A stretch of 63,910 nt of DNA, the filler included, from Polymyxa betae A26-41 (Eukaryota; Protista; Endomyxa: Phytomyxea), in the NCBI GenBank assembly GCA_003693705.1. It is 9 parts of 9 records of this genome, joined end to end, with 100 filler letters (N's around TTAATTAATTAA, not from the genome) between each part and the next. Parts side by side here need not be neighbours in the genome. Positions count along the whole stretch, not along the records: positions 1 to 12,991 come from RBZT01000477.1; 8 more parts are not named here. One strand, 5' to 3'. Both the position numbers and the translations under genes were made by a program. Below, one piece after another: positions 369 to 61,463 of the stretch (positions within the stretch are counted from its first letter, which is position 1; each line of letters begins with the position of its first letter). The notes under the pieces are model-generated. The model was not told the origin of the DNA, made no database searches, and saw nothing but the letters and a program-made list of their open reading frames with translations.

Positions 369-1269
369 TGGTTGCGAGGACAGGACCATCTCTGTAGTGT
401 TTAAATCATGATGGATTAATTGATCATTCAGCTAATTAATGCTGATTATTGTTAGATAGATGGAGGTGCAGGTTTTATGTTTAAGTAAACGGTCTCTATA
501 TCGTAATATGTGATATTGTGTTGGAGTTGAACTATTGGAGGAGTCTCATAGCTGTCCAGAGAGGTCTAGACGCTTGATGGGCTCATTGACAAAGGGCCAT
601 AGAGAAACTTGCAAGCTGTCGTAACGGATTAGCAGGGTTTGATTTGAGTGGGCCTCGTCAGTTGTCAAGCAATAGGAAAGCGAGCGCCATTGGTTCCAGT
701 AATGACATTGAGGATGTTTAGCAGCATAGAAAGGCATGGTACATGTCATGGGTAAGATCTGTTGCAAATGATAGAAGATTGAGGAGTATGAAAGGGGAAC
801 AGCTATCCCATACTGTACCAATCTTAGACAAATGAGAAAGTCGCACTAGATTCCACATATTCGCTATTACTATGTGGCTTTTCCAACTGATTAATTGACT
901 TTTAGTTGCAGATGGATTGGATCAATGCCAAGATATATCAGATATCCTTATAGACGTTCTTCATCTGTTCATAGATCAGCAGCTGCAATTCCCTATTGGA
1001 TTCTTGCGGTAACAACGATATAATGCCATAAGACGACGTAACTGGATGTATTGCTGTAGATATTTGATCGTGTTATACAAGGTCATGAACTGTGACAAAG
1101 TCCAAGTTCGGAGCATGCAATCACAACATGATCGTTAATAGTGGATGTCGGGAGATGCCAGCAAGGTCGCCCTCCTATCAGCAATCCATCGTATCGAAGA
1201 GAGACAAAGTCCGCTTCGACTAATCCCTCATGATCATACATTGACCATTTGTCTATCGTTCACATTATC

Positions 1270-2817
1270 ATGATCTCGTTCGTCATCTTATCTATAGCAC
1301 TATACGTTGCGGCGGCCGCCTCGCCTGTCGATGACCTTCGGGAAGCCTTACAAAAGGACCCGCTGGATCCTGCCAAGATCGAGGCGATTCTCAACGCCAA
1401 CCAGGACCTGGTTAACGCCCCTGTAATCGCTGGTCAGACACCTCTCACATACATCTGCCAATCTCCAGGCTATCAATCCAGATATCTGGCAGAGTATCTC
1501 CTGAATCGTGCTGAGGCCGATATCAACGCCGGCAATAAAGACACGAACCCGCTGGCCATGGCCGTGATGGTCCAGCTCGATCCGGATCTGGTGCAGTTCC
1601 TGCTGCGTCATAATCCCAATCCGGATGTCGTCTGGAACGCGTTCGATCTCGCCAGTCGCCGTGCCAACCATGATGTGTTCAACGCCGTACTGGACCATGT
1701 CCTGCAGTATGATGATAAAGCGAAGTTGAAGGACGCCTTGATGGATGCGTACTTGGCAGCGGCCACCCAATCGTACCTATCACGAATGAAGCGGTTGGTG
1801 CTGGAAGGACACGTTGAGATCGACGCCGTTCTGGAGGCCGACGGCAGCAACGCCGCCCATTTGATCGCCCGAAAGCACATGGACCGTCTCTATGAGCCAT
1901 TGGCATGGTTGGCGTCCCAGAATCCGGACATGATGAAGGCTGTCAACAATGCCAATCAAAGTCCCATGGACCTGCTGAGGCAATCGATAACCTGCACGAA
2001 ACCGTTCATGAAGTATATTAAGGACGTGACTAATGGTGTTCGTGTTCCTAACAAAACTGATGAGATGAAGAGATTGCTGGAACACGAAGATGTCAATCCA
2101 AATGCGATTAAAGATCTGCTGGAGTCGGACCCAACAATTGCTTTTACCGAGCTTGATCAAGATGGCAGCAACGCTCTCATGTTCGTGGCCAAGATCAAGT
2201 CGAATTCTGTCCTTAAAGTGGCCCAGATCTTGATCGAGAATGGCGCTGATGTCAATTATATGACATCCGATGGACGAACCGTTTTTGGCATTGCCGCTAA
2301 AGCCGAGAACATCGCTCTTATGCATTATCTTCTTGACAATTGCAAGATCGACGTTCTGGTTATCTGCAGGACTGTCTTTGATTGCATTGGGTCCAATTAC
2401 CCGAAGGCGTTCGACGTGATCGTCGACTACATGGAGAGAGAGGTTCGCGTACATTTTGATCGAGACTGGGATGGTAAAACGGCTTTCTTATTGGCGGCAT
2501 CTAAAGGCAATCGCCAATTCTTAAAGCGTCTATACAAGACCGGGTTGGTTAATGCCAATTATGCCGATAAAGACCTCGACAATGCTGCACATCTGGCAGC
2601 GAAATCCGACGACCCGACCAAGGCTATCTTGTGGTTATGGAGGAATGTCCCGGAGCTGTTCACCAACAAAAATCTGGATGAAAAGACTCCCATCGACATA
2701 CTTGAAGAGAAGAGTCAACAGAATCCCGAATTGGCTGATCTGATCAGTTACCTGCAATCGAACCCGAGATTATCCTGGTTCAAGCGTCTGAAGTTTTCTG
2801 CTCTTGATATCATGTAA
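1270..2817 (+). CDS. Secreted ankyrin-repeat protein (candidate effector)
   Basis: ATG at 1270 gives a signal peptide MISFVILSIALYVAAAA. Many ANK motifs follow (GQTPLTYIC, TNPLAMAV, DGSNAAHLIA, DGKTAFLLAASKGN, DNAAHLAA). The protein has two similar halves and no introns. Confidence 0.85.
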   Translation: MISFVILSIALYVAAAASPVDDLREALQKDPLDPAKIEAILNANQDLVNAPVIAGQTPLTYICQSPGYQSRYLAEYLLNRAEADINAGNKDTNPLAMAVMVQLDPDLVQFLLRHNPNPDVVWNAFDLASRRANHDVFNAVLDHVLQYDDKAKLKDALMDAYLAAATQSYLSRMKRLVLEGHVEIDAVLEADGSNAAHLIARKHMDRLYEPLAWLASQNPDMMKAVNNANQSPMDLLRQSITCTKPFMKYIKDVTNGVRVPNKTDEMKRLLEHEDVNPNAIKDLLESDPTIAFTELDQDGSNALMFVAKIKSNSVLKVAQILIENGADVNYMTSDGRTVFGIAAKAENIALMHYLLDNCKIDVLVICRTVFDCIGSNYPKAFDVIVDYMEREVRVHFDRDWDGKTAFLLAASKGNRQFLKRLYKTGLVNANYADKDLDNAAHLAAKSDDPTKAILWLWRNVPELFTNKNLDEKTPIDILEEKSQQNPELADLISYLQSNPRLSWFKRLKFSALDIM

Positions 2818-3475
2818 TAGAACGCCTCACCATTGCTAATGCATTTCACGTCCATTCTGTAGCCCTATTTGCGAGCAGATCAATGCTATCAATGTATCTA
2901 ATATCACTGCTCTTAATAATGAACGACTTCCATGTATAAGCAATTCAGTGTCGTTATTGTGTCCTTGATGATGAACTTGGGTCACGCCTCATGAGAATCT
3001 GCAAGCTTTACCTTGGTTGTGATGTGATCATGTAGACCAGACTTCCAGCATCTTGATGAAAGTCCTTTGGTTTATCGCTATCGATAGACCAGCGTCCGAT
3101 TGAGGTACTGAACGAACGACAATCTAGCCAGCTACCTGCGATCTAACTTGAAACCGTCCTGGCTCAAGCATGGTAAACTGGCAGCCCAGAAGCCCAACCA
3201 TATCAAACTGATACATCGTTTCAAAGATTCTGTCTGATGCAGAAACGAGCAGATCAGCACGGTTGACTGTGTATAGCCAGGTCGCTGACATCGGCCTTTG
3301 ATTGAGCGGATTATCGCATTGAGTAACGCGCTGAAAAACAACCTGTTATCGTTTGCGAGAAGTGAAGGAAAAAACGTCGGCAATATGGAGCGTGGGTCAT
3401 GCCTCGGGCGCATGCCTGCGTCATGGTCCAACATGATCATGTTGGATTCTGGTCACAGAGATAAATGTCGAATCG

Positions 3476-4720
3476 ATGTTGCCTGACCTAATCTCTGGAT
3501 CATACGATTTCGTATCGTATCTAGATCTGGCCGAGATCTGGGCCTTGCTGAACATCAGCCTTGATGGAGTCGGGACCGAACATCTCAGGCATTGTGGCCG
3601 ATTAATGGCAACGATGCGCCAACTGGCTGCCTCTGTATTTGAGCTATCGCCCGATCAAATCTACTGGATCATGTGCGATGTGATCCAGCCGCATCTGAAC
3701 CCCAAAACCCGCTCCGTCCTACGAACACGTTTATCATTGTTGCAGCAGCGGGAGATGCGATGCCTCATTACGAAGCTCTGCCAATTACCTGACGATCACG
3801 ACGAGAGTATCGATGAGCAATCGGTCATTTACTTGCTCGAGTTAATCACCGCCCATCAGCGCCCTCGCTTACAGATTGTCTATGGCGCCGCCGTTCGGTT
3901 TCAGAAGGCGATGATCTTCCAATGGGCGATCAGTCAGCTGAAACATGTCGATCATCATTTCCCAGAGCTCAACGTACCTTCCAACGATTGCGAACGAATC
4001 CATCAGGCTTTAGCGAGCCTCGAACCCAGCCAGAACTGGAGCGCTGAACAGATTGTAGCGCTGATCGACACTGGCTACGAGCCGAGCAAATTCTGTCGCG
4101 TTTTCTATTCGATGGTGGAATCACAGAGTCACCAAGCGATCAAAGCCCTTCTCGATTGCGTTTTCACGGTCGAATTATTACAACAAACGAACCAAGATTC
4201 GATGAATCCGGTGGGTTATGCAGCAGACCTAAACGATCAGCAGCTCTTGAAAATCTGCCTCAATTTTCTCTCGCGATTCGAAAAGCGACAGATTTGGCAG
4301 ATCGCCCTTGCGGGAGAGCTTCGACAAATGACGCCGTTGATATTGGCAACATATCGGGGACATGTTGAATCCGTCCAGATCTTGCTGGATTTCATTCCGA
4401 GCATCCTTCGTGAATACGCTATGACGCAGGTCGACTTTCGTGGCCGGACAGCAATCCATTGGGCGGCGTATAACGGTCATGAGCGGGTACTCAGGATGCT
4501 GTTAGAAGGATGCGAAACTTGTCGTGTTCAGCTAAAGGTGATGGCCATGGTCGATATAGTCGTGGGTGGTCATCGTCCTGACCAATATCGACATCTTACA
4601 GCCAAAATTCGACACATCTTTCACGAGATACAGGAGCAAGGTGACAACGATGCGATCGGATTGGATTCCACCGGCCCGCTGCAATCCACATTGGAACAAT
4701 TCCCGCTCACAGCAACTTAA
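3476..4720 (+). CDS. Protein with C-terminal ankyrin repeats
   Basis: 414-aa ORF with MNPVGYAAD, MTPLILATYRGHVESVQILL and GRTAIHWAAYNGHERVLRMLL ankyrin repeats. Confidence 0.8.
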   Translation: MLPDLISGSYDFVSYLDLAEIWALLNISLDGVGTEHLRHCGRLMATMRQLAASVFELSPDQIYWIMCDVIQPHLNPKTRSVLRTRLSLLQQREMRCLITKLCQLPDDHDESIDEQSVIYLLELITAHQRPRLQIVYGAAVRFQKAMIFQWAISQLKHVDHHFPELNVPSNDCERIHQALASLEPSQNWSAEQIVALIDTGYEPSKFCRVFYSMVESQSHQAIKALLDCVFTVELLQQTNQDSMNPVGYAADLNDQQLLKICLNFLSRFEKRQIWQIALAGELRQMTPLILATYRGHVESVQILLDFIPSILREYAMTQVDFRGRTAIHWAAYNGHERVLRMLLEGCETCRVQLKVMAMVDIVVGGHRPDQYRHLTAKIRHIFHEIQEQGDNDAIGLDSTGPLQSTLEQFPLTAT

Positions 4721-8336: not shown

Positions 8337-9460
8337 TGTCTGGAGACCAGAAGAGGGTAGCTAATGGCACGAGTGGAGGCTGCGCAAATCAGACAAGCCA
8401 GAGGCTGCGCCACTGTCCCGCTTGGAATCCGATTGATAACACTATGAAGGTTCTGGGTCGATCTCGAACACTGTCCAGTGACAGCCGACCTCTCACACTT
8501 GACATCGACGTCTTCATCATACGTCTTTGGTCAGTGTCTCGATGATGTCGCTGAGTGACTGGATCACAGACACGCAGTGCACCTATTCAGATAGATGCTG
8601 GATGACAGAGTCGACGTCCTTCGTCGTTGATTCTGTCCAAACCCATTTTCAGATACTGTCCATCCTGCGTCTGTGCTCAACAAGAATCGGATTCCCAGTG
8701 TCTGCACAATGATAGCCTTCTTTTCGTTGTAGATAGGTTGCGATGCCGATGCAAATTCTCTATTTATTCGAAAATGAAATACTCACTTGAGCCAAGTCTT
8801 TTTAGCCATGCACTTTATAGCTCAAGTGCATTAACTGATCATACACCGCCATGTCTTTCTGGTACAGGCATGTTTGTTTGCGATCAGTGTCCATGAATGT
8901 TTTTTATATCGCAAAGTCTGGGGCTTCCTTCAACATCACAATCTGATACATTTCAGTTTCGTCAGCATTGATCAGAAAGCAGATAGTTTGATATTGCTTT
9001 TCTCTGATCCTACGTTTCGATTTTTCAGCTCGTTGGTGTACGAAAAGGGGTTGATTCGTATCCCAGGACGTTCTGGAACCGCTACATAACGTTGCCCAAC
9101 ATTCACCCGCTGTCATAATGCATTTGTTGAGTTAGCGAGAAGTTGTTAAGCTTAGGAGTAAAACCGAAATTCGGGAGAAATGCAGAGGCAGGAAATCTAA
9201 TCGAAAACTGCGAACAAGCGAAATTACAAAGCCAAAACCAGCGAAGTCACGTATATATTTCGATCGAGAAATTTGGCGGCGAACTCAGATTGCAAAGACA
9301 GTAGTGTTATTATAGCAATGTTCAATTGGAACACTTGCATGGTAGATCTCCGCCCAGTTCCAAAGATCAAGGAGAGACATGCAAGTATCATTTGACATCA
9401 GATCAGAATTGTAGATAAAGCAGGGCAGTTGAGTGTATTTCATTGATTTCCTTCTGCAGT

Positions 9461-10750
9461 TTAGAGCAAGCCATTAACAATGGAGAGCTCCGCATTCAAA
9501 ATTGAGCCACCAGCAGCTCCTAGAACAGTATTGTGGCTTAGGCAGACGAATTTTACATCCAGCAAGCTGCAGGAACGAATACGTCCAACAGTCACCGAGA
9601 ATCCATCACCAGCATCACGATCTAATAGCGGCTACGAAATACCGTGTATCATAACAGTGATTGCAACTAGAAAAGTGATTACCTGAGGCCTATCGGGCGA
9701 CGAGGCAACAATAATAGGCCGTTCAGGTGCAGAAGGAAGTCCCAATTTCCCGACTGGCGATTGAAAGTCTCTGAAGACCCGCTCAACTTGCTCAGCGGAA
9801 GCCGACTGTCGCAGACGAACGCTGACACAGGCTGTATGCCCATCTCGTACAGCAACGCGATTGCAATGCGCACTGATATGGATTTGGACTGGAACAAACT
9901 GGCCCGATGCTGCTGAGTCCCATTGGCCCAGGATCTTCTGTGGCTCCGTCTCGAGCTTGTCCTCTTCCCCTCTGATCAAAGGGATCACATTGTCAACGAT
10001 ATCCATCGATGACACTCTGAAACAACACTAAGAATTTTCAGTAGGCAGAATTGCGATATCCGAACCCTGGATATCCTGCACCCGAAACCGCCTGAGAGAA
10101 CCGCAATCAATAAAAATATAATTCGACCAAAATAGCAACATCTACCTGTAAAGTGGTGACGAACACGGATTCAATACCGAATGCGTCTTCCAAGGGCCTG
10201 ATCGGCTCTGGTGAATCCAAAGTCAAAAGTCCCAATATCTTTCTTACTTTAAAGCAACGGCAAGTCCTGTGCTTGAACAATTGGCATTCGCGACGATAAA
10301 GCCAGATGTTTTGCTGGTTGATCGTTGCATGCTAACAGCCTCAAGATGGGACGGGTTCACAAACGGGACCAGAATCGGGACGTGATTATCCATGCGATGA
10401 TTCGCAGCGTTAGTGAAGACGGCGAACCCGGCCTGGGCGAATTCATCCTCGATATGACCAGCCACAGACGAGTCCAGCGCCGAGAAGACGATCTCAACGC
10501 CTTGGAATAATGCCGGGTCGCAAGCGACGACGACCATGTCGGCGACTTCGTCGGGCATTGGTGTGGATAGACGCCAATTGCATGCATGCCGATAGGTGAG
10601 TTCGGCGGAGCGAGCAGAGGCGCCCAACACAGTGATACGGAGCCAAGGATGGGCATGAAGACGCTGGATGAAACGCTGTCCAACGAGCCCAGTGGCGCCG
10701 AGGACCGCGACCGAACGACGATGTCCAGGGCGACTATCACGAGCCTCCAT
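9461..10750 (-). CDS. asd: Aspartate-semialdehyde dehydrogenase, multi-exon
   Basis: VLGATGLVGQRF, NAANHRMD, catalytic ANANCSST, SAHCNRVAVRDGH and C-terminal HNTVLGAAGGSILNAEL. Exons are separated by short introns; stop TAA at 9461-9463. Confidence 0.93.
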
Positions 10751-11525
10751 TGTTTGAAATGACGAAATGACATGGACACATGGTGGTCATTTCTACTATG
10801 TAGGAGCGACTGAGGGAGATGGCCACGCGGAAACCTTAACCTGCTGACTTCAGAGACGATATTTATAGACTCACGGAGTCATTCGGTAGTGATGGTTGCT
10901 GAAGTCGTCGGATAGAGCGATGAGCAGCAGCGAACATGCAGACTCGCAAGGATGAACTCATTGTGGTGATGGAAACATTGTAGCGTTTGACGACTTGCGG
11001 TTTCTCTGCATGCTGCGATATGCTGAGCTGTCTCCAAACACACAATAAACTCAACTATAAATAACCGGTCATGTTCAAAAACGATTGTGTATGGTCAATC
11101 TTGAACTTTCAGCGTGGGAGGTGAACGGTACCCAAATAATCTTTCAAAAATACCATCATCATGACGATCTTCACCGAACATCGAGACTGTCCAATTCATG
11201 AAAAATGAAAACTCTCTTGTATTTGAAGTAAAGCTGTACATATGATGAGGTGCGAAAAGGGGAAGGGTCAGTTATAGGACTCAGTGAGACTGATACTATC
11301 GTTAGGATTGCCAAGTCAATTATATACATTTTGATTTTTAAAAAACAAAAACAGCAGGGATTTCCCCAATCTGTAAAAGTGAAAAAATACAAATGGGCAC
11401 ATATACGCAGTGCCCAATAATATTCTTGACCTTGACGACCATAATCACGAACATTTTCGCCATGATGACTCAATAATGAGTCAGCATCATTAGTTTGTAA
11501 TGAACATAGAAACTCCACTTTAAAA

Positions 11526-12478
11526 ATGAACTCTAACTCTAACATCTCTGCTTCCTCAAATGTCAATGAAAGCGCTGAAGGAATTAAAAGCGTAAAAATA
11601 TCTATCTCTAATGTAATGAAGAAGACATCGTATCTGGATAAAGCAAAAATCAACTACCAGAAAGGGAAAAAACCTAACGTCAAGCGAATTATAGATGAAA
11701 TTATGAAACTCAACATCAGCAACAAAAGCAAAGTGGCATATATGAGCAAGTTCAAAGCAGAACTCAAGGCAATGCGAAAATAACCCGTTCTCGAAAGACT
11801 GAAACTACCCGCCGATGTTGCTCAAGAAGTATGGGACAGACAAAGAAAAAGCATTGAAGAGAAAGAGAATATCGAAATCAACAGAAAAGATATAGAGAAA
11901 ATTATGACCTTCAAATCTTCTAACGATTTCTTCGAGCTCGCCATTCTTCTTCTTCTCGTAAGCGGACGGAGGGAGAACGAGCTCCTTAATCTCCAACCGA
12001 AAGCGTCTGACAACCCTAACGCATTCCTGTTCAATCAACAACGGTAAAAAAGGTGAGCTCGCCATTCTTCTTCTTCTCGTAAGCGGACGGAGGGAGAATG
12101 AGCTCCTTAATCTCCAACCGAAAGCGTCTGACAACCCTAACGCATTCCTGTTCAATCAACAACGGTAAAAAAGGTGATTACAGAATATGAAGTGCCTATA
12201 TATGGCACTTCATTCGACGAGTTCATGATGCTCTTTGGCTGAATGAAGGATGTGAAACCGAAACTCCATCCTGACACTTTGTTAAGAAAGTTGAGGACGA
12301 GATAAGGTTTATCCTTGGTAATCAGAAGCTGGTCATTCATAATCTTCGCATGGTCTATGTTCATTTAATGTATGAAGAGAGCGATAGAATTACACCTATC
12401 GCTACCTTCATACAGCGCCTCCTTGGACATGAAGATCCGCAGACATCAATACATTATAACAGATTAAATATCGTATGA
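11526..12478 (+). pseudogene. Degenerate protelomerase/telomere-resolvase-like tyrosine recombinase
   Basis: Reading through stops and frameshifts gives ELAILLLLVSGRRENELL...AFLFNQQR-KK..ITEYEVPIYG...KLVIHNLRMVYVHLMYE...ATFIQRLLGHEDPQTSIHYNRLNIV*, i.e. an R-K-(H)xxR-H-Y catalytic set. It is intronless and AT-rich. Confidence 0.75.
11934..12175 (+). repeat. 121-bp tandem duplication inside the resolvase pseudogene
   Basis: 11934-12054 and 12055-12175 are identical except for one C/T difference (GAGAACGAG vs GAGAATGAG). Confidence 0.95.
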
Positions 12479-12582
12479 AAACAGAAAACATAAATATATC
12501 TATAAAATTCTATTCAAATTTTTACCTTGTCTGTCTATCCATCGTAGATCGCTCAGTTTGTTGTCTCTGCAATCACAATTTA

Positions 12583-12991
12583 TGTGATCCGCCTCCTTCA
12601 ATCGCAGTGGGTTCGGCAACCACTGCTTACAATATAAACGAGACTGTGAGGACTGGGATAGGGCGAGGAAGAATAAGTGAAGGCTACGAAGAAGCAGGCG
12701 AACAAGAGTTACAAGAATCGAATAGATTCGAGAATGATTGTATTTCGATAAACAGAGAAAGCAAAGGTTCGAAGTTGTGAGTCACGATACTTGAGTCAAC
12801 AGGAACTTGGAATTGATGGTAGATGACTCATGAGGTAGCTCGGAAGCTGAACGGAAGTAGTGAATCATGACATTACCCCCCTTCTAGACGAGCGGGTACC
12901 AGACGCTCGAGAGGGTTGTGAGGCAGTGAAGGCTGGACCGGGAAGATCGGGGTGGAGACGATGGAATTCGGCGACAAGGCCAGGAACGTCT
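12583..12991 (-). mobile_element. 3' end of a Ty3/gypsy (chromovirus-type) LTR retrotransposon: pol C-terminus, PPT, 3' LTR
   Basis: The minus strand reads DVPGLVAEFHRLHPDLPGP (post-chromodomain tail), then PPT AGAAGGGGGGTAA and TGTCATG at 12872. The probable LTR end is ...ATCACA at 12583. Confidence 0.65.
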
Positions 12992-13091: not shown

Positions 13092-14435
13092 TCAGAGCCA
13101 GCCTCAACGACGCCAGAGTCAGTCTTGGCGACGTCAGTGTCGATCCTCGAACAATGTCGAGCTCCCAGGTCTATGGTTGACACTTGGAATGTGAATTATA
13201 CAACGGACGGATGGAGCTAAGAACGAATTCAGAAGGGAACTGGCACAGTTTGCGACTTCGTGCGCCGTCAACTCGATCTGATCGCCAACCAAGTCGATCA
13301 ACTCGGCCTCATTCTGAACATTTTACAGACGAGGAAACGAAATCGTTTCGGATAGCTCGCTCAGTATAGCCTCAGACTGATCGCTACTACATTCCTGGTT
13401 AAAAATTAATTCATACGTTGAAGAGTTCGTTTTAAAGCGCATCTGACTTACATGTCAAAATTTGACGTGGCCGATTCGTGCAAAATCTCCTTCTGAATTG
13501 AAATATTGACAAATTCCTATGTAGCCATATTATAAACGAATGCAATGTTCGAATCTGAGCCAAACCTGATCTGCCTCAATGTCAGTCCGAAGGCGGTATT
13601 TCGTCAAGGCAGATTTTGACATCAACTCGAAAACAAATTCCGAGTAATGGATTTCATTCTGCACGTTCATGATTAACGGCAACAAGACGAGGATGCGGTT
13701 TCAGTTTCGAAAATGGATGACTGTTACATGCCACAAAAAAGCCAGAAGATTTCGCGAATTGCCGAGCCTTTTCCAGAAAGCTGGAGCCATTACTATGATG
13801 CTGATCCACCGCGAAAGGGGTCAAAACTTCATCAAACAAAATGTATTCTGCGGAACGACTGTCCGGAGTCGGCGTTTCAGGAGAATCTGGCGTCGTTAAA
13901 TGTAAGGTGGAAGGAGTCGACTTCGGGTTTAACGGAAAAGGTTTTAATGGCGAAGTAGGCGATGCTGATGCCGATGGTGATAAAGGGAAAACAGCAGGCT
14001 TAGTTGGCGAAAGCCAAGACTGGGGCGCAGGGGGGAATCCGGTGCAGGCCTGCAATTCGATTGTTTAAGTGAGGTCCCAAGAATCAACTTCGAAAACCAA
14101 GACATTACGAACTAAGACATTGTATCCCACTGTAGAACGAGTGTCCCCCTACACATTTTCATGGACAGCGCAGCCATCGTCCACGGGTGGACGCACTGTC
14201 GCAGATTTGTCCACGGGTGGACAGCGCAGCCTCTTTCCACGGGTGTTGAAAAGGCACCACCGCACTTTAAAGACCCTTTAAGAGCCTGGTTGAAGTGCGT
14301 GGCCTCTACTTTTTGGCCGTCTCCTTATTTAGTCCCTCTGACTGCGGAGCGCATTTTTGATCTCCTTATATTTTCAGGAGGTCGCCGACCTCCTAAAAGA
14401 GATAAAACGCTGTCAATCCGGAACGCAAAAAGGAT

Positions 14436-15732
14436 ATGGATCTCTTTGAAGAAGTAGACAATGAGCTATCAACGGATTCAGAAGATGACCTTGCCGTTGT
14501 CCAAGCTGTTGCTGTCTGCCTTCATACTACAATAAGCCTGCTCCTAGCAGATGGCAGAAGGTCGAAACGGGCGAAAATGGAGCAGTATACTTTTCCGAAT
14601 GAAACTTGGGAGCAAGCTTATGCTAGTGATTCGAACGGATGGTTCCATTCGAATTTGCGATTGAATCGTAACTCGTTTGAGTACATAGCACAACGGATAG
14701 AGCAAGCAGCATCTGACCTTGGCCTCAACTTGTTCCCTGCTGCGAACGCTCGCATAGACTACAAAATGAAGCTTGCCATGACCATGACCTATCTCGCTCA
14801 ATCATCCGGCTTTCAGGCGACGGCTAGTCTGTTTGGAGTGGCCAAAGCCTCGGCTATTGTCTTGATCAACAGTATGGTGGATATCCTCCATCAAATTTCC
14901 TCATTGGTTATTAAAGTCGGGATCCTTCACGAATACTCGGAAATTAATGGACAAATAAATGATCAGATGCCTGAAACTTTTAATGAATGGACTGCCGTAG
15001 CTGATTTATTCGAGAAACTTCGTGGTTATCCCGACGTTGCAGGCGCCGTTGATGGGACTTTAATAGAGGTCGAGCGTCCCAAAGAGCATGAAGGTACGTT
15101 TGTATCAGTGAAGCATTCAAGGTGTTAATGCTATGCTGAATGAATACAGATGGTATTGTAGAAAAAACTTTCCTGCAATTAATATGCAGGCAATCGTTGA
15201 TAGCCAAGCCAGATTTATGGATTACTCAATGCGTCCTGGCTCCTGTGGTGACAAGAATCTTTGGACCATGTCAATACTCGGTCAAAACTTTGTACAAATA
15301 ATACCACGAGGGATGCACCTAGTTGGGGACGCAGGCTATACTCTAACAAATGTAATGATGATTCCTTATAACATTACAGAAGACATGGCAAGGGAGGAAT
15401 CCACATTTAACTACCTTCATTCTTGTACAAGGATCTGTGTGGAACGAGCATTCGGCTTGTTGAAAGGCAGATGGAGAATATTGAAGCACGCCCTAAATAT
15501 GAAATCCTCTGAGAGCATTGGACGTACTATCGTCTCCTGCATGGTCTTACACAATTTGACGATTGAAGCCAAGGATTCTTTCACAATTCCAAGCGAAGAT
15601 CGTGTAGACCCATTCCGAGGGCAGCATTCAAGGTGGATAGAATCCCGGCCGGGGGATAGGGAACATGCCCTATTGAAAAGAGAGCAAATTAAGCAGTACT
15701 TGTTGGACATTCAGACCACTGAATGTAGCTAG
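14436..15732 (+). CDS. Harbinger (HARBI1-like, DDE_Tnp_4) transposase
   Basis: VAGAVDGTLIEVERP, WYCRKNFPAINMQAIVD, LVGDAGY and RICVERAFGLLKGRWRIL. Introns lie at about 14916-14966 and 15098-15149; the second junction is uncertain. Confidence 0.9.
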
Positions 15733-23380: not shown

Positions 23381-25018
23381 TCAGCAATAGACCGTATTAC
23401 AACCGCTGGAAGAGCTGTTGAGAACGACTCTAACAAGAATAGTCAGAAAAGTAAACAAAACGGGGAATATACCATGGCGCGGGTTGGACTGGTCGATACC
23501 CAATGATAGATTTCTTGAACGAAATGCACGATAATCGTCCGTTAAAATGCCAGAATCAGGGATAAACGCCGGCTCATGTCTAGGTGGTTCCACACGACCA
23601 GCTTGGCAATCCTGGTATCTATTGAAGCACTCTTCAATATCATTACGAAGCCGTTCAACAAAATCCAATATATTTGGATGTCCATTTCCGGTAAAAAGCG
23701 AACAGAAACGCCTGTGGTAACTTTCCAGGGCGTTGTTGGTTCGATTGGCGATTTCCTGGCTGTTGATGCTGTTATAAATATTCCAATCATATGGAGAATA
23801 TTGTCGCATCCATGTCACACGTATATAATTGAAGAAAGTGTCCAGCTTGGCCATTTCCTCATCGTTGGTAAGCTGCAGTTTCTGGCGAAGATACTCAAAC
23901 CCTAAGATGCAAATTTCGTGATGAGGGATGACAGTGAGCACATCAAGAACGCCTGGGCGCATAAGCCTGGCAATGATATCATCTGAAACATGCAGATCTT
24001 TTAGCTGTCTACGATTGGCTTGCTTCCAATGAAACAAGCAGCCAATAACCATTACGTCGTTGCCGAATACACCTAAGATTGATATCAGGAATTTCCCGCT
24101 ATGGAATGCCGAAAATATAAACCTTTGATCCCTTTGATTAAGGCCTTTTCAAAGTCGCAGGTGACCGTGGCGACCCGGATCTTACATCCAATAACAGCAA
24201 CACACATATTCAATGCAAACTGGTAAAGGTAGGTGGATTTACCTGTCATCAAAATATGAAATACTGGTATATACATATCGGTCCCAGCGTCTTTCGCCAT
24301 TATAACTAGGAGCTGATGGAACTTGTCTGGAACCACCTTGAATGTGCTATCAATAAATAGCTGAACTCCTTCGTAACGAAGTATTCTTCGCAAACCCGAA
24401 TTAAACCATCCCACAAGGCGATGTTGCACTGTGGGTGAGGATGGGTCGTACACAGGAGTATTGAAGCAAAGAAATGGCAGCATTCCATCCACAGACAGAG
24501 CCAAGTTGGGGTTTTCAATATCCTGAAGCCTATCGGCTCGCCGACCGCCATGGCGCCTGTTCTCTATACGAGAAATAACCTCGCTCTTGGTCATCATATG
24601 TATTGGTTGGCCAGCATACTTCGTGGTGATGAGATTTCTGACGTCAACCCATAAAGATTCGGCAGTTTTTGAACGTTGAGAAACTGCAAGGTCGTCAATC
24701 ATATCCTTCATCTGAACGAGTATATTGAATCAATTAATACAAATATCCAATATTTTTGGAAACGTACCTCTTCAACAGCATCGACAACAAGAATTGTCTC
24801 AGTGCTGGAATTAAGGCAACAAGTGTGCTCTTTCGAGCTGAATCCTTGGTCAATTGTTCCTTCTGGATCGACAACAATAGCTGCCGGGCATGGATTCGGC
24901 CGTTTCTTTGATTTACGGTAATGACTGCATCTATAGTAATGCTGGCCATTTTTGTACAGTACAGAAATTTTAATCCATCAACGTAGATGGGCGGATGACG
25001 AGGATTGGTCGCAGGCAT
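23381..25018 (-). mobile_element. MULE (Mutator-like) transposase gene with N-terminal FLYWCH-like finger, multi-exon
   Basis: QLFIDSTFKVVP, VTCDFEKALIKG, GCLFHWKQA and RTNNALESYHRRF. It is colinear with the copy at 62676-63910. Confidence 0.85.
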
Positions 25019-25940: not shown

Positions 25941-28441
25941 CAGGCCTCTACATATAAGGTAAATGCCGAATATGCCGATTTTCGGTAAAAAACGGCATCG
26001 GATAGGATCAATATAAGGCATATAAGGCAAAATTACATAAACTCCAACAATGCGGGGCTTTTATTTTGAATTGGCAACGAATTGACGACAGTGAAGGATT
26101 CCTTCGAGCGAAAACTTGCTCAGGGCACTTCGATGAGCATCCTTTTCCCATTTCAAGACCGAGAAGTCCGATTCGACTGTTGCAGTGTTCGGAAACGGAC
26201 AAGCCAAGCGTCCAAAGAACTCAACTAACTCCGGGAAACGATCTTTCAGTCCAGGAATAGCCCAAGCTTCCTGAAAGTCGGAGTTTGCACCAAGTTTCGC
26301 AAGTGCACCGGGCAGACGAGGTTCCAGTCTGTTGGCCTCTATGAGCAATTTATGCTGCTCAACAATCCGATCGATCTTGGAGGCGTCCCAAGAATGCATA
26401 AGTCGAGAGTGGTACGACATGACGAGTTCAGTCACATCGCGAGGCTTTAGTGCAACAATCTCTTGAGGTAACGTTGGCGGATGAATGTAATCAGCGGCTT
26501 CTCCTCGAACTGCAGATACTTTTACCAGCCCTTCCAGAATGAACGAAAGGAATTCTGCCATTAACTGGCACACGTTGACCGCATCCAAATTGCCCAACTG
26601 TTGAAGTGACTGAAACACAAAGATTCCTTGGTCTTTGAGAAATCCAGAAAGCTCCTCTTTCGAGAATCCCCAACAGCCAATTATGAAATCAAATGCCCGC
26701 TCATTTGTTTCAAACTCCGGACTGTTCAAGGGCCCTTCAACAAAGGCGCATCTTTTCAGGTTAGCAATCAACTGATCGACTTCATGCGTTTGGGTTGAAA
26801 GCGTCACTGTTTTGCCTTGAAGCTTCTGCACGACAAGATTGACCTGAGTGGAGATATCGGCAACCGCAGCGAGAAGAATCCACCATTTTGCGTCGGGTCT
26901 AAAACGTATTGAATCACCTCCTTCTTCCTCAATCCTGTCAAAATGGTCGAAGATATCTGCTCGATGTTCAAGAAAAAAACGGGAAACACGGCTCATTGAC
27001 ACCCAACGGGTGGCAGATAACAGGGGACACACCGCCTGGATTTTATCGCAGAAAAGCTTCTGCTTCCGACGATGCGAGACCAGGCTGGTTAGGGTCTTCA
27101 AATATCGGCCCTCATCGATAGACTTGAATGCCTTCTGCGAGACAATGTCAATTTGATGTAATAGGCATCAGACCCGGATGAAGCCTGTATTCGTGATTTC
27201 CTGCTGGATGCGTGTAACGACACCAGAAATGCTACCAGTCATGTTCGCAGCACCATCTGTTGAACAGGCAATGAGTTTGCTAGGCCAATCCGGACAAAAC
27301 GCCTGAAACAGTTTGGTGAACATCTCGAACATTGCCGCCCCACTATGACGTCCTTCAAAAGGAACTGCAATCACATGAAGATTATGAATCTTAGCGGCTT
27401 GAAAGAACCGAACCCTAACATCGATGAACGAGGTCCCGTGAATATCTGTGGAGCCGTCAAGTGCAACAGAAAACGCCCAGCATGTAGTTAAAGCGTCCAT
27501 AATTGCTTGAAACGAGGCGGCGTAAGCAATGCGGACATATTTCGCAACATGGAGCTCGTTGCAAAAGCCCAGCTTAGGACAGTAAGTATTTGCTTGGCGT
27601 CTTGGATTGCTGCGGCGGCCATTCTGAAAGACATTCCATGCCCAACAAAACGCACAGCAAGCTCGAATTGTTTGACTTGGTTCACTTTTACAGTATATAC
27701 TTCGTGGTCGGCATCAAAAACAAAAAATGACGTAGATTCCTGAGCGTTTGGCGGTAAAAGCATGTCCGAAATGATCACATCGACAATTTTCTTGTTGAAT
27801 TGGAATCGCAGCGTGGAAGATCATGGCTCCAAATACGCCTCGAGTTTGTTCGCATGCTTTTCGCTTTCAGAAACGTCAAAGAATGATTCCATTTCTTCCT
27901 TTGAACTCGACTTGTACTCCTTCCATTTGGTTGGGAGGTCCTTCAAGTGGTGTTGACGATAGTTCTCCGGCCGGAAGGGCGGACCTTCAAAGGTCCAACA
28001 GCTGGATGTACTCTTGGAGTTCGCTTCTCGCCCAAACGATATACAAAATCGGCAACGCACAGCAACGACAGCAGATGACAAAGGATCTCTCGCTGAAATA
28101 GCTAATCCATACTCTACCAAGTGTGTTTTCTGAAAAGGAGTTAACCGCGATCCAGCAGAACCTTTACGAGCCCTTTTTGCAGCAGGTTCTTGAAAGCCGG
28201 CTTCTGTTCCTGCCTCAGGATTTTCATGAAGGGAAGGCATAGATCGTCGATGTCAGCAAATTCCAGGTCGATTTGAGCTGCAGTTCTACAGAGAGGGATC
28301 TACGGACTGCAGAACAGCGAAAATTTCTCATATCAATTCAAAAAACTGATAAAAATATTTTTTTAAAAACGGCATCCCATCGAAGTGAAAAAACGGCATT
28401 TAAGGCATCTATAAATAGATTGCCTTATATGTAGAGGCCTG
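25941..28441 (-). mobile_element. Complete-ended hAT DNA transposon (2.5 kb)
   Basis: 19-bp TIR CAGGCCTCTACATATAAGG (25941-25959 / 28423-28441) and 8-bp TSD GAGATGCC (25933-25940, 28442-28449). Confidence 0.93.
26061..28240 (-). pseudogene. hAT transposase, disrupted
   Basis: FSVALDGSTD, ACSTDGAANMTG, RV*CLLHQ, TRWVSM and PNTATVESDFSVLKWEK. In-frame TGA at 27821 and 27168 plus a frameshift near 27580. Confidence 0.85.
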
Positions 28442-31756: not shown

Positions 31757-33875
31757 TGTTAAGACAGCGAACACGACGGGAACTGCACTGGGCTGCGCCG
31801 AGGGCGCTGACCACCTGGTGCTGGACTAGGTAACTGGCTGCTGGCCACGTGCGCCGGCAGCCGGACTTGTTACGACCCATCTTCTGTCCTAAATAAATTG
31901 AGCACTTGATTCTGGATACTAATACGTCTGCATCTGAACGTAGATAGTATGGCATCATCAGACGCTGAGTCCAGACCCGGATCATCTTCGTCCAGACCCG
32001 GATTATCTGCTCAACAGATTATGGGCCCAGACACTATCCGAGCTTACACCGGGGAAAAGCTAAATGGAAAGAACTGGGGCGCGTTCGAGTTCGGGTTTAC
32101 GGCTTACCTAATTGGTTACGATTTAGTCGGCTCCCTGAACTCGGACATCGCGAATAAAGCGATGCAAAACAAGATTTTCTCAGTGCTGATCGCTGCGCTG
32201 GAGTCAAGTCAGTACGTCTTAGTGAATAAGACGAAAACGCCGAGCGAGGCGTGGCCCGCTTTGAAGTCGTTCTACAGGAAGCGGAGTGGACAGTCGATTC
32301 TCATCCTAACGCAAAAGTTCCGTCATGCAAAGTTGACGGAATCAGGAGATCTATACGCTCATCTGGCGATGATGTCGAGTTTGGCCGACGAACTGGACGA
32401 GGTAACGGGGTCTAAGATTAGGGATGAAGATTTTATGACGACTGTATGCTTTTCAATAATGGGCGCACAGCGGTACGCCAACGTAATTGAAATTATCATG
32501 AACGGGCCGGTACTGCAGAGGACCGAGCTCACAAACAAGCTAATGGCCACGGAACAGCGATTCAAGACGGTTGAAGAGCAGAAGACCGAGCCCGAGACCG
32601 CTTTGAAAGCGACATCGGGGAAAAAGAACAAAACGAAGAAGAAGGGGACGTGTTACAATTGTGGGAAGAGCGGTCACTTTGCAAGAGACTGCAGGTCCAA
32701 GACGAAGACTTCAAGTCTAGAATCAGCGAACAAGGCGACTGCCGACACCGAGTTCCTGTTTGCAGCACAATTGGGCGGGAGCGACGCGACTAACGGAATG
32801 TCTGGCTCTTGGATCCTCGGCAGTGGAGCATCTGCACATATGGTTGCTTCGATGGGACTGCTCATGAACCCGGAGCCTGTCAACAGTACAATCAAGGTCG
32901 TGATCTGTGACGGAAGTACACTTACAGCGACGCATAAGGGCCAGGCCATCATTCCGCCGGACGTGAAGTTGAGGGATGTTCTTTATGTTCCTGGACTTAA
33001 AGAGAATCTGTTCTCAGTGAGCGCGGCGTCCACAATCACAGGAGTGAAGGTCATGATTGAGAAAGGGCTTTGCAAGGTAATGCAGAATGGTCGAATTGCA
33101 CTGACCGCGGGGAAGCACGGTGGCGTATTCCGAGTCATGGCAGCGACTGCAACCGAAGAGCAGAAAGAAGGAGATATCATCGATTATCATCGCCGGTGCG
33201 GACATACCAACTTCAAGACCATCACGCTGATGAGCAAAACTGGAATATTGCCGCCAATAAGAGATCAAGAAGGCGTCAAAGACGATTCGTGTCAAACCTG
33301 TATGAAGGGAAAGATGACGAGAGCTCCGATACCGAAAGCTGCGACGAACCGAAGACGAACGACTGGCGAATTGATTCATAGTGACCTATGCGGCCCAATG
33401 AGGACAAGATCGTTGCAAGGGAGCATCTATATGGTCACTTACCTGGACGACAGTACCGGATGGATCCACCTGAATTTCTTAAAGGAGAAGTCAAAACAGC
33501 TGAAAGCGTTCAAAGCGTTCCAATCAGCATTTGAGAATCAGACTGAGGTGAAGATCAAGTGTTTGAGAAGTGATGGAGGAGGTGAATATTCGGGCGAGAT
33601 CGTGCACGACTACCTTAAAGATAACGGCATCAAATGGGAACGATCTGCACATAGGACGCCTCAACAAAATGGGCGTGCAGAACGACTGAACCGGACCATA
33701 ATGGAAATGGCACGCTGCCTGTTGATCGACGCCGGACTGGGGCACGAATACTGGCAATATGCCGCTGCGATGGCAGCATATATCCGAAATCGCACGCCGA
33801 CCTCAAGCAATCCCAACATGGAGTCACCGTACGAAATGCTGTGGGGATCTAAACCAGATCTAAGTAATCTTCCAC
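31757..33875 (+). mobile_element. 5' part of a Ty1/copia LTR retrotransposon (LTR 31757-32016, PBS, gag-PR-IN), 3'-truncated
   Basis: TGTTAAG...CTCAACA LTR with AATAAA, followed by a copia-type PBS GATTATGGGCCCAG (32017-32030). Homology stops at a TAGGGTTAGGGTT motif. Confidence 0.85.
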
Positions 33876-33916
33876 TAGGGTTAGGGTTGCTACACGTGTT
33901 TTTTTTTACTTTCTAG
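32021..33916 (+). CDS. Copia gag-pol (zinc knuckle, protease, integrase; RT missing)
   Basis: CYNCGKSGHFARDC; protease site WILGSGAS (catalytic D replaced by G); HRRCGH..CQTC; IHSDLCGP, LRSDGGGEY, QQNGRAERLNRT. Confidence 0.9.
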   Translation: MGPDTIRAYTGEKLNGKNWGAFEFGFTAYLIGYDLVGSLNSDIANKAMQNKIFSVLIAALESSQYVLVNKTKTPSEAWPALKSFYRKRSGQSILILTQKFRHAKLTESGDLYAHLAMMSSLADELDEVTGSKIRDEDFMTTVCFSIMGAQRYANVIEIIMNGPVLQRTELTNKLMATEQRFKTVEEQKTEPETALKATSGKKNKTKKKGTCYNCGKSGHFARDCRSKTKTSSLESANKATADTEFLFAAQLGGSDATNGMSGSWILGSGASAHMVASMGLLMNPEPVNSTIKVVICDGSTLTATHKGQAIIPPDVKLRDVLYVPGLKENLFSVSAASTITGVKVMIEKGLCKVMQNGRIALTAGKHGGVFRVMAATATEEQKEGDIIDYHRRCGHTNFKTITLMSKTGILPPIRDQEGVKDDSCQTCMKGKMTRAPIPKAATNRRRTTGELIHSDLCGPMRTRSLQGSIYMVTYLDDSTGWIHLNFLKEKSKQLKAFKAFQSAFENQTEVKIKCLRSDGGGEYSGEIVHDYLKDNGIKWERSAHRTPQQNGRAERLNRTIMEMARCLLIDAGLGHEYWQYAAAMAAYIRNRTPTSSNPNMESPYEMLWGSKPDLSNLPLGLGLLHVFFFTF

Positions 33917-59806: not shown

Positions 59807-60780
59807 AGGTTAGAGGTGGTACGCCAACTAAAGACGTCTTTGTGGCAATCTTTCGTTCAAGCCTGAGACGATTGTACGTAGAAATAGTGAAGATGAGTCT
59901 GTATTAATTATATGCGTATTCAAGCCCTTAGTAAGTCCAGAAATTCATCGGAGTTGATTGATAGCCAAAGTATGCGTACATTAGAGCCATACAATATCCA
60001 ATATTGTTACACTCCCCTCCTTCTGTTAAATCAATCTCCGAGAACAAGAAGCAGCTGGGACATTACAGTAAGCATCGGCATTAAAAACCATCAGGGCTCT
60101 AATGGAAAAGCATGCCACTTAAAGCAAAGTCCACTTCTTAATACTCTCTAGGACCATGTCTGCCAAAGGGTGGCGAGACAACTTTAAAGTCTTATGATAC
60201 TTCTGGTCTAAGACAGGAACGTCTTTCCAGAGATTCTGTAAGGGCTCCCAAGTGTTCGCTGTTTGGGGAAATCCCTTCCAATCTACAAGCAGCTCTATCT
60301 GATGACTCTCTGAGTCAAGTCGGCAATCTCTGAATTGCTCAACTTCATAGCTTGCATTATCATAAGCAAATTGGTCCTGAATCTCTTCAGTAATATTTAA
60401 TTTGTTATCCGCATAGTATTTCATTCGGTCCCCGTGAATAACCTTCTTGACGCCATCTATTATATTTTCAATTTCGAAGATATAATTATTCTTAACGTCA
60501 GTAATATGGAATGGACCTTTCCACATCAAGAACAATTTCCTGCCGGGTCTTCTTACAGGATCAGGATCCCCAACCAAGACAAAGTCCCCAACTATAAAAT
60601 TAGGTTCTCTTCTGAAGATTCGAGGTTGAGTGCGATTCTTTCGACGCTGATCCTCTCAAGTAATTACTATTCGTCTATGCATCTGTGGTAACGCGACTCT
60701 TGTAATTGCTTAACTTCCTGTAGAAGCTTATCTAGCGGAATTCTCTCATACTGAAGTGTATCATTTCTAACTCTGGCAAA
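59807..60780 (-). mobile_element. Ty3/gypsy chromovirus 3' end: integrase tail, chromodomain, PPT, LTR start
   Basis: KLFLMWKGPFHI (GPF motif), YEVEQF..LLVDWKGFPQTANTWEPLQNL (chromodomain), and PPT AGAAGGAGGGGAG followed by TGTAACA at 60011. Confidence 0.85.
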
Positions 60781-60791
60781 TACACTATCTA

Positions 60792-61338
60792 ATGGGTTGT
60801 CCGGACGCTCTCGTTGATATGCCAATGCCAAAGAAAGCTAGTGAGCTACAACAGTTATTGATGGCTACTCAATGGATGAGTAGATCAATTCCTCGTTATA
60901 ATCAGATTGTCGTAAAGTTGCAGCAGTTATTTGAAAATGCAATGAAAGGACAGACTAAGAGGACGAAAACTGTTGCTAAAAGGGTTGACTTGAATGAGTT
61001 TGGTTGGAATGCTGAGCATGAGCTAGCAGTTCATAAACTTAAATTAGCACTGATAGAGAATGTCAGGATTGCATTTCCTAGTGATGAGATGATACAGTGT
61101 GTCTTCTGTGATGCTAGCTATCAATATTGCTCAGGTATGGTTACACAGATTCCTGCTGAGGATGATTGTAAGCCATTTTGTGAACAAAGACATCAGCCAT
61201 TGGGGTTTGTTGGTCATCGATTTAAAGGCTCGGAATTGAATTGGGCAATTGTTGATAAAGAGGCGTTTGCAATCAAGGACACTTTGAAAAAGTTGTCATA
61301 CTTATTGCATAGGAAACGGCCATTTTTGCTGTTTACTA
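60792..61338 (+). mobile_element. Ty3/gypsy RT-connection/RNase H fragment (opposite orientation)
   Basis: CVFCDAS, PLGFVGHRFKGSELNWAIVDKEAFAI. Confidence 0.85.
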
Positions 61339-61463
61339 GACAAATCCGTAAATTAAAACTGAGTTTTAAGGTTTGGCTTTCAGTCACAGATCTCAAAGTC
61401 TGTTTAGAGATTGCTTTCCGTTATTTATTATAAACTCGTTTTGCCCAAACAGAGTTTCTAAAT

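Follow-up and report, generated by a model that had tools for sequence, protein, structure and literature searches.

What enzyme did the broken gene at 11526-12478 of this DNA encode, how did the gene reach its present site, and did its product fold DNA ends into hairpins or join an element to its host? The window, by which we mean the whole stretch analyzed (63,910 nucleotides from Polymyxa betae A26-41, GCA_003693705.1), consists of contigs joined by N44-linker-N44 spacers and is not one chromosome; the gene lies on the first contig, which ends 513 bp beyond it. A sequence-only reading had proposed a hidden gene of the hairpin-telomere resolvase type in a eukaryotic chromosome, left behind by a hairpin-ended virus, plasmid, or mobile element.

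The locus holds, on the plus strand, a decayed recombinase gene with two in-frame stops, two frameshifts, and a 121-bp tandem duplication (Table 1). These lesions, and the motifs quoted in the sequence-only reading, are all present in the translations. The frame of piece 1 runs past its TAA at 11781-11783 up to the TAA at 12045-12047, a further TAA lies at 12166-12168, and we placed the first frameshift at 12045/12166. Setting X at the four breaks and keeping one copy of the duplication yields a read-through of 277 aa. This read-through scores 235.5 bits over positions 5-250, without large gaps, against a 251-position family profile built from 28 relatives (unnamed proteins of ~260 aa) with the window sequence excluded, while the best of 200 shuffles reached 7.4 bits. 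Because the relatives were retrieved with the N-terminal half, the C-terminal half is the independent part of the score. The family alignment of the P. betae gene begins near Met31 (11616), and its GC content is 0.39, compared to 0.50-0.57 in two host exons.

When piece 4 was searched against the PDB, the sole match was TelK (2v6e, E 0.015); against Pfam, it matched ResT-TelK_cat (E 0.0024, 17.9 bits) ahead of Phage_integrase (E 0.0096, 16.2 bits), with both scores below cut-off. Used as a query for longer proteins, this piece gave 0 of 4 candidates, and a viral scan with it returned 10 loci in which the match was limited to 20-22 residues around LGH. The N-terminal half had no useful match in the PDB or PHROGs, and an Rfam search gave no match.

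Table 1. Features of the locus and its flanks, in window coordinates.
Feature	Coordinates	Strand	Remarks
asd, aspartate-semialdehyde dehydrogenase gene	9350..10750	-	Host gene with introns, left flank; 3′ end unmapped; Pfam Semialdhyde_dh and _dhC above cut-off
Upstream segment common to other copies (to ~11454)	11296..11525	+	Repeated unit likely has its left end at the segment's start, from depth step and piece starts
Dyad	11462..11487	.	10-bp arms (one mismatch), 6-bp spacer; weak candidate binding site
Piece 1	11526..11783	+	ATG 11526 to TAA 11781-11783; N-terminal helical DNA-binding region
Piece 2	11784..12047	+	Linker helix and start of catalytic domain, GRRxxE; to first frameshift
Tandem duplication	11934..12175	+	11934-12054 / 12055-12175; 121 bp, 1 mismatch
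Piece 3	12168..12302	+	YEVPIY strand region; in-frame TGA 12240-12242; to second frameshift near 12303
Piece 4	12275..12478	+	HxxR and LGH...Y catalytic motifs; natural stop TGA 12476-12478
Likely 3′ LTR of an LTR retrotransposon	12528..12872	-	TGT start at 12872; far end uncertain, 12500-12645
Polypurine tract and end of pol-like frame	12873..12991	-	Cut by contig end

To place the gene in its genome, we compared the contigs of four sequencing runs from four studies (X2, X3, X4, and X11) with it and its flanks. The stretch occurs in 20 of 24 listed runs, and in 12 of these with half or more of its words. The left flank is asd, whose best match is Plasmodiophora brassicae (63%, 36 bits ahead of the next) and whose introns are skipped as CT..AC joints in X4 and X11, indicating that these two are likely RNA runs. 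Single contigs span asd and the gene in three of the four runs (X3 record 13, X4 record 21, X11 record 2). Substitutions and a 19-base insertion set X3 and X11 apart from the window, making them independent alleles; X2 is identical to the window and may be its own source. The gene is thus chromosomal, joined to a spliced plasmodiophorid asd in independent alleles, and contigs of X3, X4, and X11 running from asd into the gene rule out contaminant DNA, which the sequence-only reading had listed as a possible refutation. The insertion in X3 and X11 adds 19 bases at 11287, just left of the apparent left end of the repeated unit, and includes a perfect 10-bp palindrome.

The X11 allele also orders the lesions. 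It lacks the 121-bp duplication, is elsewhere gap-free in 11704-12689, and has 11797 as its single difference in 11704-11933. Since the first frameshift occurs in both duplicate copies, the duplication is the younger lesion; together with the otherwise gap-free X11 allele, this makes the first stop and both frameshifts older than the duplication. An assembly artefact was ruled out as the source of the duplication: contigs break around it in X2, X3, and X4, and the X11 allele is without it.

The sequence-only reading had suggested looking for paralogs, and these exist. Summed contig depth is neither copy number nor expression level, and we used it only for the existence of several related copies, their common left end, and their presence in probable RNA. 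It is flat over asd in the DNA-type runs X2 and X3 (181 and 17), climbs 5-10-fold in the bin starting at 11278, and over the gene lies at 415-2520 and 40-136. Related pieces in the runs start at 11296-11302, 230-320 bp upstream of the gene start. The ~85% alike contigs of X4 and X11 are confined to the coding part (about 11540-12490). At the frameshift sites within their span, two of them (X11 record 4 and X4 record 26) have one extra base, which is what an open frame requires. Several related copies with a common left end therefore exist and occur in probable RNA, some ~85% alike and without the frameshifts. From the depth step, rather than from read flanks, we infer that the copies were inserted at dispersed sites.

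As seen, the repeated unit measures ~1.2 kb, from 11296 to at least 12516, and other copies diverge from the window after 11454. The dyad at 11462 sits in a stretch absent from other copies; such a dyad arises in 52 of 2000 shuffles of the 326-bp region and 11 occur in the window, and on these weak statistics we did not accept it as a resolvase target. No terminal inverted repeat was found in 10800-12990. To the right lies the likely LTR, where depth rises to ~190x (X2) and ~80x (X3) the asd level, beginning at about 12530-12620; loose contig ends with mixed flanks occur at 12872. Read on the minus strand, a purine run (12885-12873) precedes TGT, the layout of a 3′ LTR. The pol-like frame beyond it has no Pfam match, and its end resembles a chromodomain tail. 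With the LTR and the contig end on this side, the right end of the element and any cargo are hidden; capsid, ATPase, and protease genes are absent from the window, in which the locus is cut on the right by these same features.

Other contigs of the window carry many transposon remnants (14406-15732, 24085-24729, 26061-28252, 31910-33916, and 60119-61433), including a Harbinger-type DDE, a copia gag-pol, and a chromodomain pol tail; some of these frames we take to be MULE- and hAT-like. Two ankyrin-repeat genes lie at 1234-2817 and 3437-4720, the first with a signal-peptide-like hydrophobic N-terminus. Secreted ankyrin proteins are typical of plasmodiophorids.

The N-terminal half, used as a query, retrieved 31 relatives among 1.84 billion proteins, and further ones came from a profile search. 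Most full-length members measure 241-275 aa, and they are unnamed. PF16684 is matched (E<=0.1) by 25 of 28 members and PF00589 (Phage_integrase) by 9 of 28; the intact relatives P0004 and P0037 score 59.2 and 73.7 bits with the former versus 32.3 and 32.4 with the latter (cut-off 27). Against the PDB, the family profile ranks TelA (7e-14), ResT (2e-13), and TelK (6e-11) above XerA (7e-6). We then turned to an AlphaFold model of P0004 (pLDDT 95.8), which is 35% identical to the read-through. It superposes on TelA with Z 21 and an rmsd of 2.5-2.7 Å over 247-248 of 250 residues (TM 0.77-0.80), covering TelA 108-411, compared to Z 18.5 for TelK, Z 11.5 and TM 0.47-0.49 for XerA, and Z about 9 for Cre; Cre-like folds rank far below TelA. 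On this relative, the family is predicted to have a TelA-type two-domain core with a linker helix. The assignment to telomere resolvases thus stands, with TelA, ResT, and TelK ahead of Xer, lambda, and Cre in both profile and fold searches, and the check set beforehand, for a better generic XerC-like match, came out in favor of the resolvases. No reverse transcriptase, as a DIRS-type neighbor would be, lies next to the P. betae gene.

The four closest relatives of the P. betae gene (P0001-P0003 and P0008) are 44-58% identical and all truncated. The gene falls in a 14-row clade with 98% SH-aLRT in one of two quick trees, which excluded 11 rows (duplicates, short fragments, and the two-domain P0009) and had two bacterial protelomerase-like loci from the genome scan as outgroup. 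P0009 (434 aa) carries two resolvase domains in tandem, of which the first is degenerate and the second has the catalytic set. With P0005, P0037, A3, A5, and A8 as queries, viral scans gave no match, a scan with A4 returned only the phage-type protelomerase L012, and the phage collection yielded three weak integrase matches. L014 (9368-10825), a protelomerase-like gene closely related to the phage-type L012, lies in the genome of an insect symbiont, on a 705-kb contig. The metagenome scan found one distant, long-branched locus, L011, an AT-rich 3.2-kb contig on which a telomere-resolvase gene (3-914) and the gene of a family A DNA polymerase (962-3079; PolA) are arranged tail to tail.

Relative to the characterized enzymes TelA of Agrobacterium tumefaciens (PDB 4e10, 4dwp, 4e0p, and 4f41), TelK (2v6e), and ResT (8vs5), the family shares the helical N-terminal domain, linker helix, and catalytic domain, as well as GRRxxE, FxxQxK, Y-x-hydrophobic-P, and the R-H-Y catalytic set. 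It differs from TelA in its length of only ~250-270 aa, without the N-terminal regulatory domain or C-terminal tail and at ~20% identity, and from TelK in having no stirrup.

At the catalytic positions (TelA R255, K286, R366, H394, and Y405), the family has R in 39/41, K in 40/40, R in 34/34, H in 25/33 (Q in 8), and Y in 33/33 rows. The P. betae copy retains R, R, H, and Y, and its Lys position falls on the first frameshift. Since Arg, Lys, Arg, and Tyr hardly vary, intact members are likely to be active phosphotyrosine enzymes. A subclade (P0011, P0017, P0024, P0032-P0034, P0038, and P0009) has Gln in place of the catalytic His while keeping the other four residues.

Two further positions bear on whether the enzymes make hairpins or recombine. 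At TelA position 363, TelA and ResT have Tyr where generic tyrosine recombinases have His, as described in sections of PMC3558466; the P. betae copy and 29 of 34 family rows have His, and TelK has Lys. The His of HxxR, which the sequence-only reading counted toward a resolvase signature, is thus a generic tyrosine-recombinase residue. An Asp at TelA D398 promotes hairpin formation, and the D202R/D398A double mutant turns TelA into a Cre-like recombinase, according to the portion of PMC13221069 available. The equivalent position (ResT D328), which we set as seven before the catalytic Tyr, is Asp in 2 of 33 family rows. This test is weak because the P. betae copy has the Asp, as does TelK, and the presumed phage-type protelomerases L012 and L014 also lack it. 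We found no long palindrome in 10750-12990, nor in the 12.8 of 19.6 kb of L013 (described below) that we covered; the longest arms are 11 bp. With the recombinase-type His and the rare Asp, this leaves the hairpin ends and the hairpin-forming role hypothetical.

One intact member was found within a carrier, L013. This record of 19,612 bp has direct terminal repeats, and CheckV rates it as complete (100%). Neighbors of its intact 270-aa relative include a Sputnik-type minor capsid (E 5e-11) as well as a cysteine protease and a primase-helicase; the 12.8 kb covered also encodes a P-loop ATPase and a histone-fold protein. Penton and protease are above cut-off and the ATPase is weak (Pox_A32, E 0.07); no major capsid was seen in the covered part, and Pfam searches with rve and Phage_integrase gave no match in the record. 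By its gene content, L013 appears to be a virophage-like genome. It falls in the other half of the family from the P. betae gene, for whose 14-row clade the viral, metagenome, and genome scans found no carrier; a complete virophage-like genome without another detectable integrase is known for one distant member only. The nearest Atlas cluster of P0037 (261 aa) is 45% PF16684 and 90% viral, with Preplasmiviricota the commonest phylum (10 with known phylum). These two observations uphold the proposed origin from a virus-type mobile element. We conclude that 11526-12478 is a chromosomal pseudogene that derives from a virus and belongs to a compact, unnamed family with the telomere-resolvase fold.

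L013 has two other features. An 18-22-bp palindrome (TGACGT, six A/T, ACGTCA) lies between genes at 802, 2603, 4401, 5984, 8608, 9894, and 10811, often within 25 bp of a stop codon, with 11-12 matches in the whole 19.6-kb record and 0 in a reversed control. These are likely terminator or promoter elements and may be a recombinase site; as resolvase targets we did not accept the 18-20-bp repeats, which have too many copies, mostly directly after stop codons. The protein at 3094-4389 has two apparent histone folds (Pfam Histone, E 1.5e-4, below cut-off); the word 'Histone' is absent from the searched main text of two virophage surveys.

Virophages as well as polinton-like viruses (PLVs) carry tyrosine recombinases and integrate in protists, according to portions of PMC10120064, PMC6905037, PMC8547959, and bioRxiv 10.64898/2026.06.19.733378. 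In the passages available, their OLV11-like, Sputnik-type, and EMALE recombinases (PMC4642659, PMC6905037, PMC8547959) resemble our family in being stand-alone genes of virophage- or PLV-sized genomes, located near the end of the integrated element and proposed as integrases; in integrated PLVs the gene adjoins the junction (PMC4642659, in part), as in the P. betae copy. Two OLV11-like sequences in a supplement lack GRRxxE and FxxQxK by eye. Telomere resolvases are not named in the searched main-text passages of these three papers, and PMC9952930 and PMC11464507 gave no match to the terms searched in the parts covered. In the literature searched, we found no description of a TelA-type enzyme in virophages, PLVs, or plasmodiophorids, with the proviso that supplement annotations may have been missed, and no described DNA virus of plasmodiophorids. 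A telomere resolvase in a eukaryotic chromosome is itself not new: portions of PMC13236599 describe one in endogenous phaeoviruses of Ectocarpus. As in the P. betae copy, phaeoviruses (EsV-1, FsV-158, and the Ectocarpus elements) and EhV-86 (Q4A292) supply a telomere-resolvase-family gene of a eukaryotic DNA virus within a eukaryotic chromosome. They differ, in the same portions, as giant viruses that possess a separate integrase and in which a telRL-like site has been mapped, while the P. betae copy is a pseudogene whose relatives indicate small viruses.

We tentatively favor, at somewhat below even chances, the explanation that the locus holds a chromosomal copy, now broken, of a repeated gene whose intact relatives have a TelA-like predicted fold. 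Its likely source is a small DNA virus of protists, virophage or polinton-like, which likely used the enzyme as an integrating recombinase. A dimer or tetramer would bind an inverted-repeat site near the gene, cleave through the catalytic Tyr, and join element to host DNA by strand exchange, the cut strands not being folded back. The element would have inserted upstream of asd and acquired its stops and frameshifts; an LTR retrotransposon would then have inserted 50-150 bp downstream, and the 121-bp duplication would have arisen last, in some isolates. The recombinase-type His, the rarity of the D398-type Asp, the common left end of the copies, and the L013 context speak for it. Against it stand the Asp of the P. 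betae copy, the position of L013 in the other family half, the lack of a capsid, ATPase, or protease gene in the window, and the whole-length TelA geometry with its linker helix, which is what hairpin makers use.

The main rival is a less probable account with the same virus-type origin, in which the enzyme was a true telomere resolvase, its carrier was linear with hairpin ends, and another enzyme or host repair brought it into the chromosome. The full-length TelA fold and the Asp of the P. betae copy agree with it, and phaeoviruses provide a precedent, as parts of PMC13236599 report a resolvase coexisting with a separate integrase and fold-back reads at a telRL-like site. The absence of TelA Y201/R205 says little here, since these residues are not conserved among protelomerases (sections of PMC3558466). 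However, no long palindrome appears in the regions searched, the His is of recombinase type, and L013 assembles with direct terminal repeats and shows no second integrase in two Pfam searches. We place integration above hairpin formation because of the repeated chromosomal copies, the gene adjoining the junction, and a carrier without another integrase, and a capsid-less version of integration adds to that side. This version, improbable by itself, takes the element for a small virus-derived DNA transposon of little more than this gene, with a Crypton-like layout and a telomere-resolvase-type enzyme. The visible shared unit is indeed only ~1.2 kb, published screens give 0-1 capsid genes per plasmodiophorid assembly (rows of PMC10120064 Tables S1 and S4: one capsid match for Polymyxa betae, a mark for P. 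brassicae rows, none for Spongospora), and the closest relatives are all truncated, as expected of decaying genomic copies. Yet cargo may follow behind the LTR and contig break, short-read assemblies lose repeats and divergent capsids, and the truncations may be contig ends. We think it similarly improbable, if anything slightly more so, that the locus is a scrap of an endogenous giant virus (Nucleocytoviricota) duplicated later. The best viral fold match of the P0004 model is the telomere-resolvase-domain protein of EhV-86 (Q4A292, E 4e-10), but that protein is only 20% identical and 378 aa long, no giant-virus gene lies near the P. betae gene, and the Atlas cluster and L013 indicate Preplasmiviricota.

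A bolder form of the favored integration reading, which we consider rather doubtful, is that a compact telomere-resolvase branch switched in nature to integration and serves as the integrase of virophage-type viruses. In a plasmodiophorid it would drive a multi-copy element that is still transcribed and possibly lacks a capsid, be a natural counterpart of the TelA-to-Cre switch, and be a sign of virophages, and so of giant viruses, in plasmodiophorids. The surprise is limited in that the P. betae copy is dead and algal giant viruses are already known to have enzymes of this family. Should the enzyme integrate, the family would be a natural telomere-resolvase fold acting as a recombinase, with a bearing on the interconversion of the two reactions, and would offer a minimal scaffold of ~260 aa. 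If it makes hairpins, some virophages or PLVs would have N15-like linear genomes, undescribed in the searched portions of the virophage and PLV papers. Either outcome would be new for small eukaryotic viruses, and the finding marks plasmodiophorids as likely hosts of such small DNA viruses.
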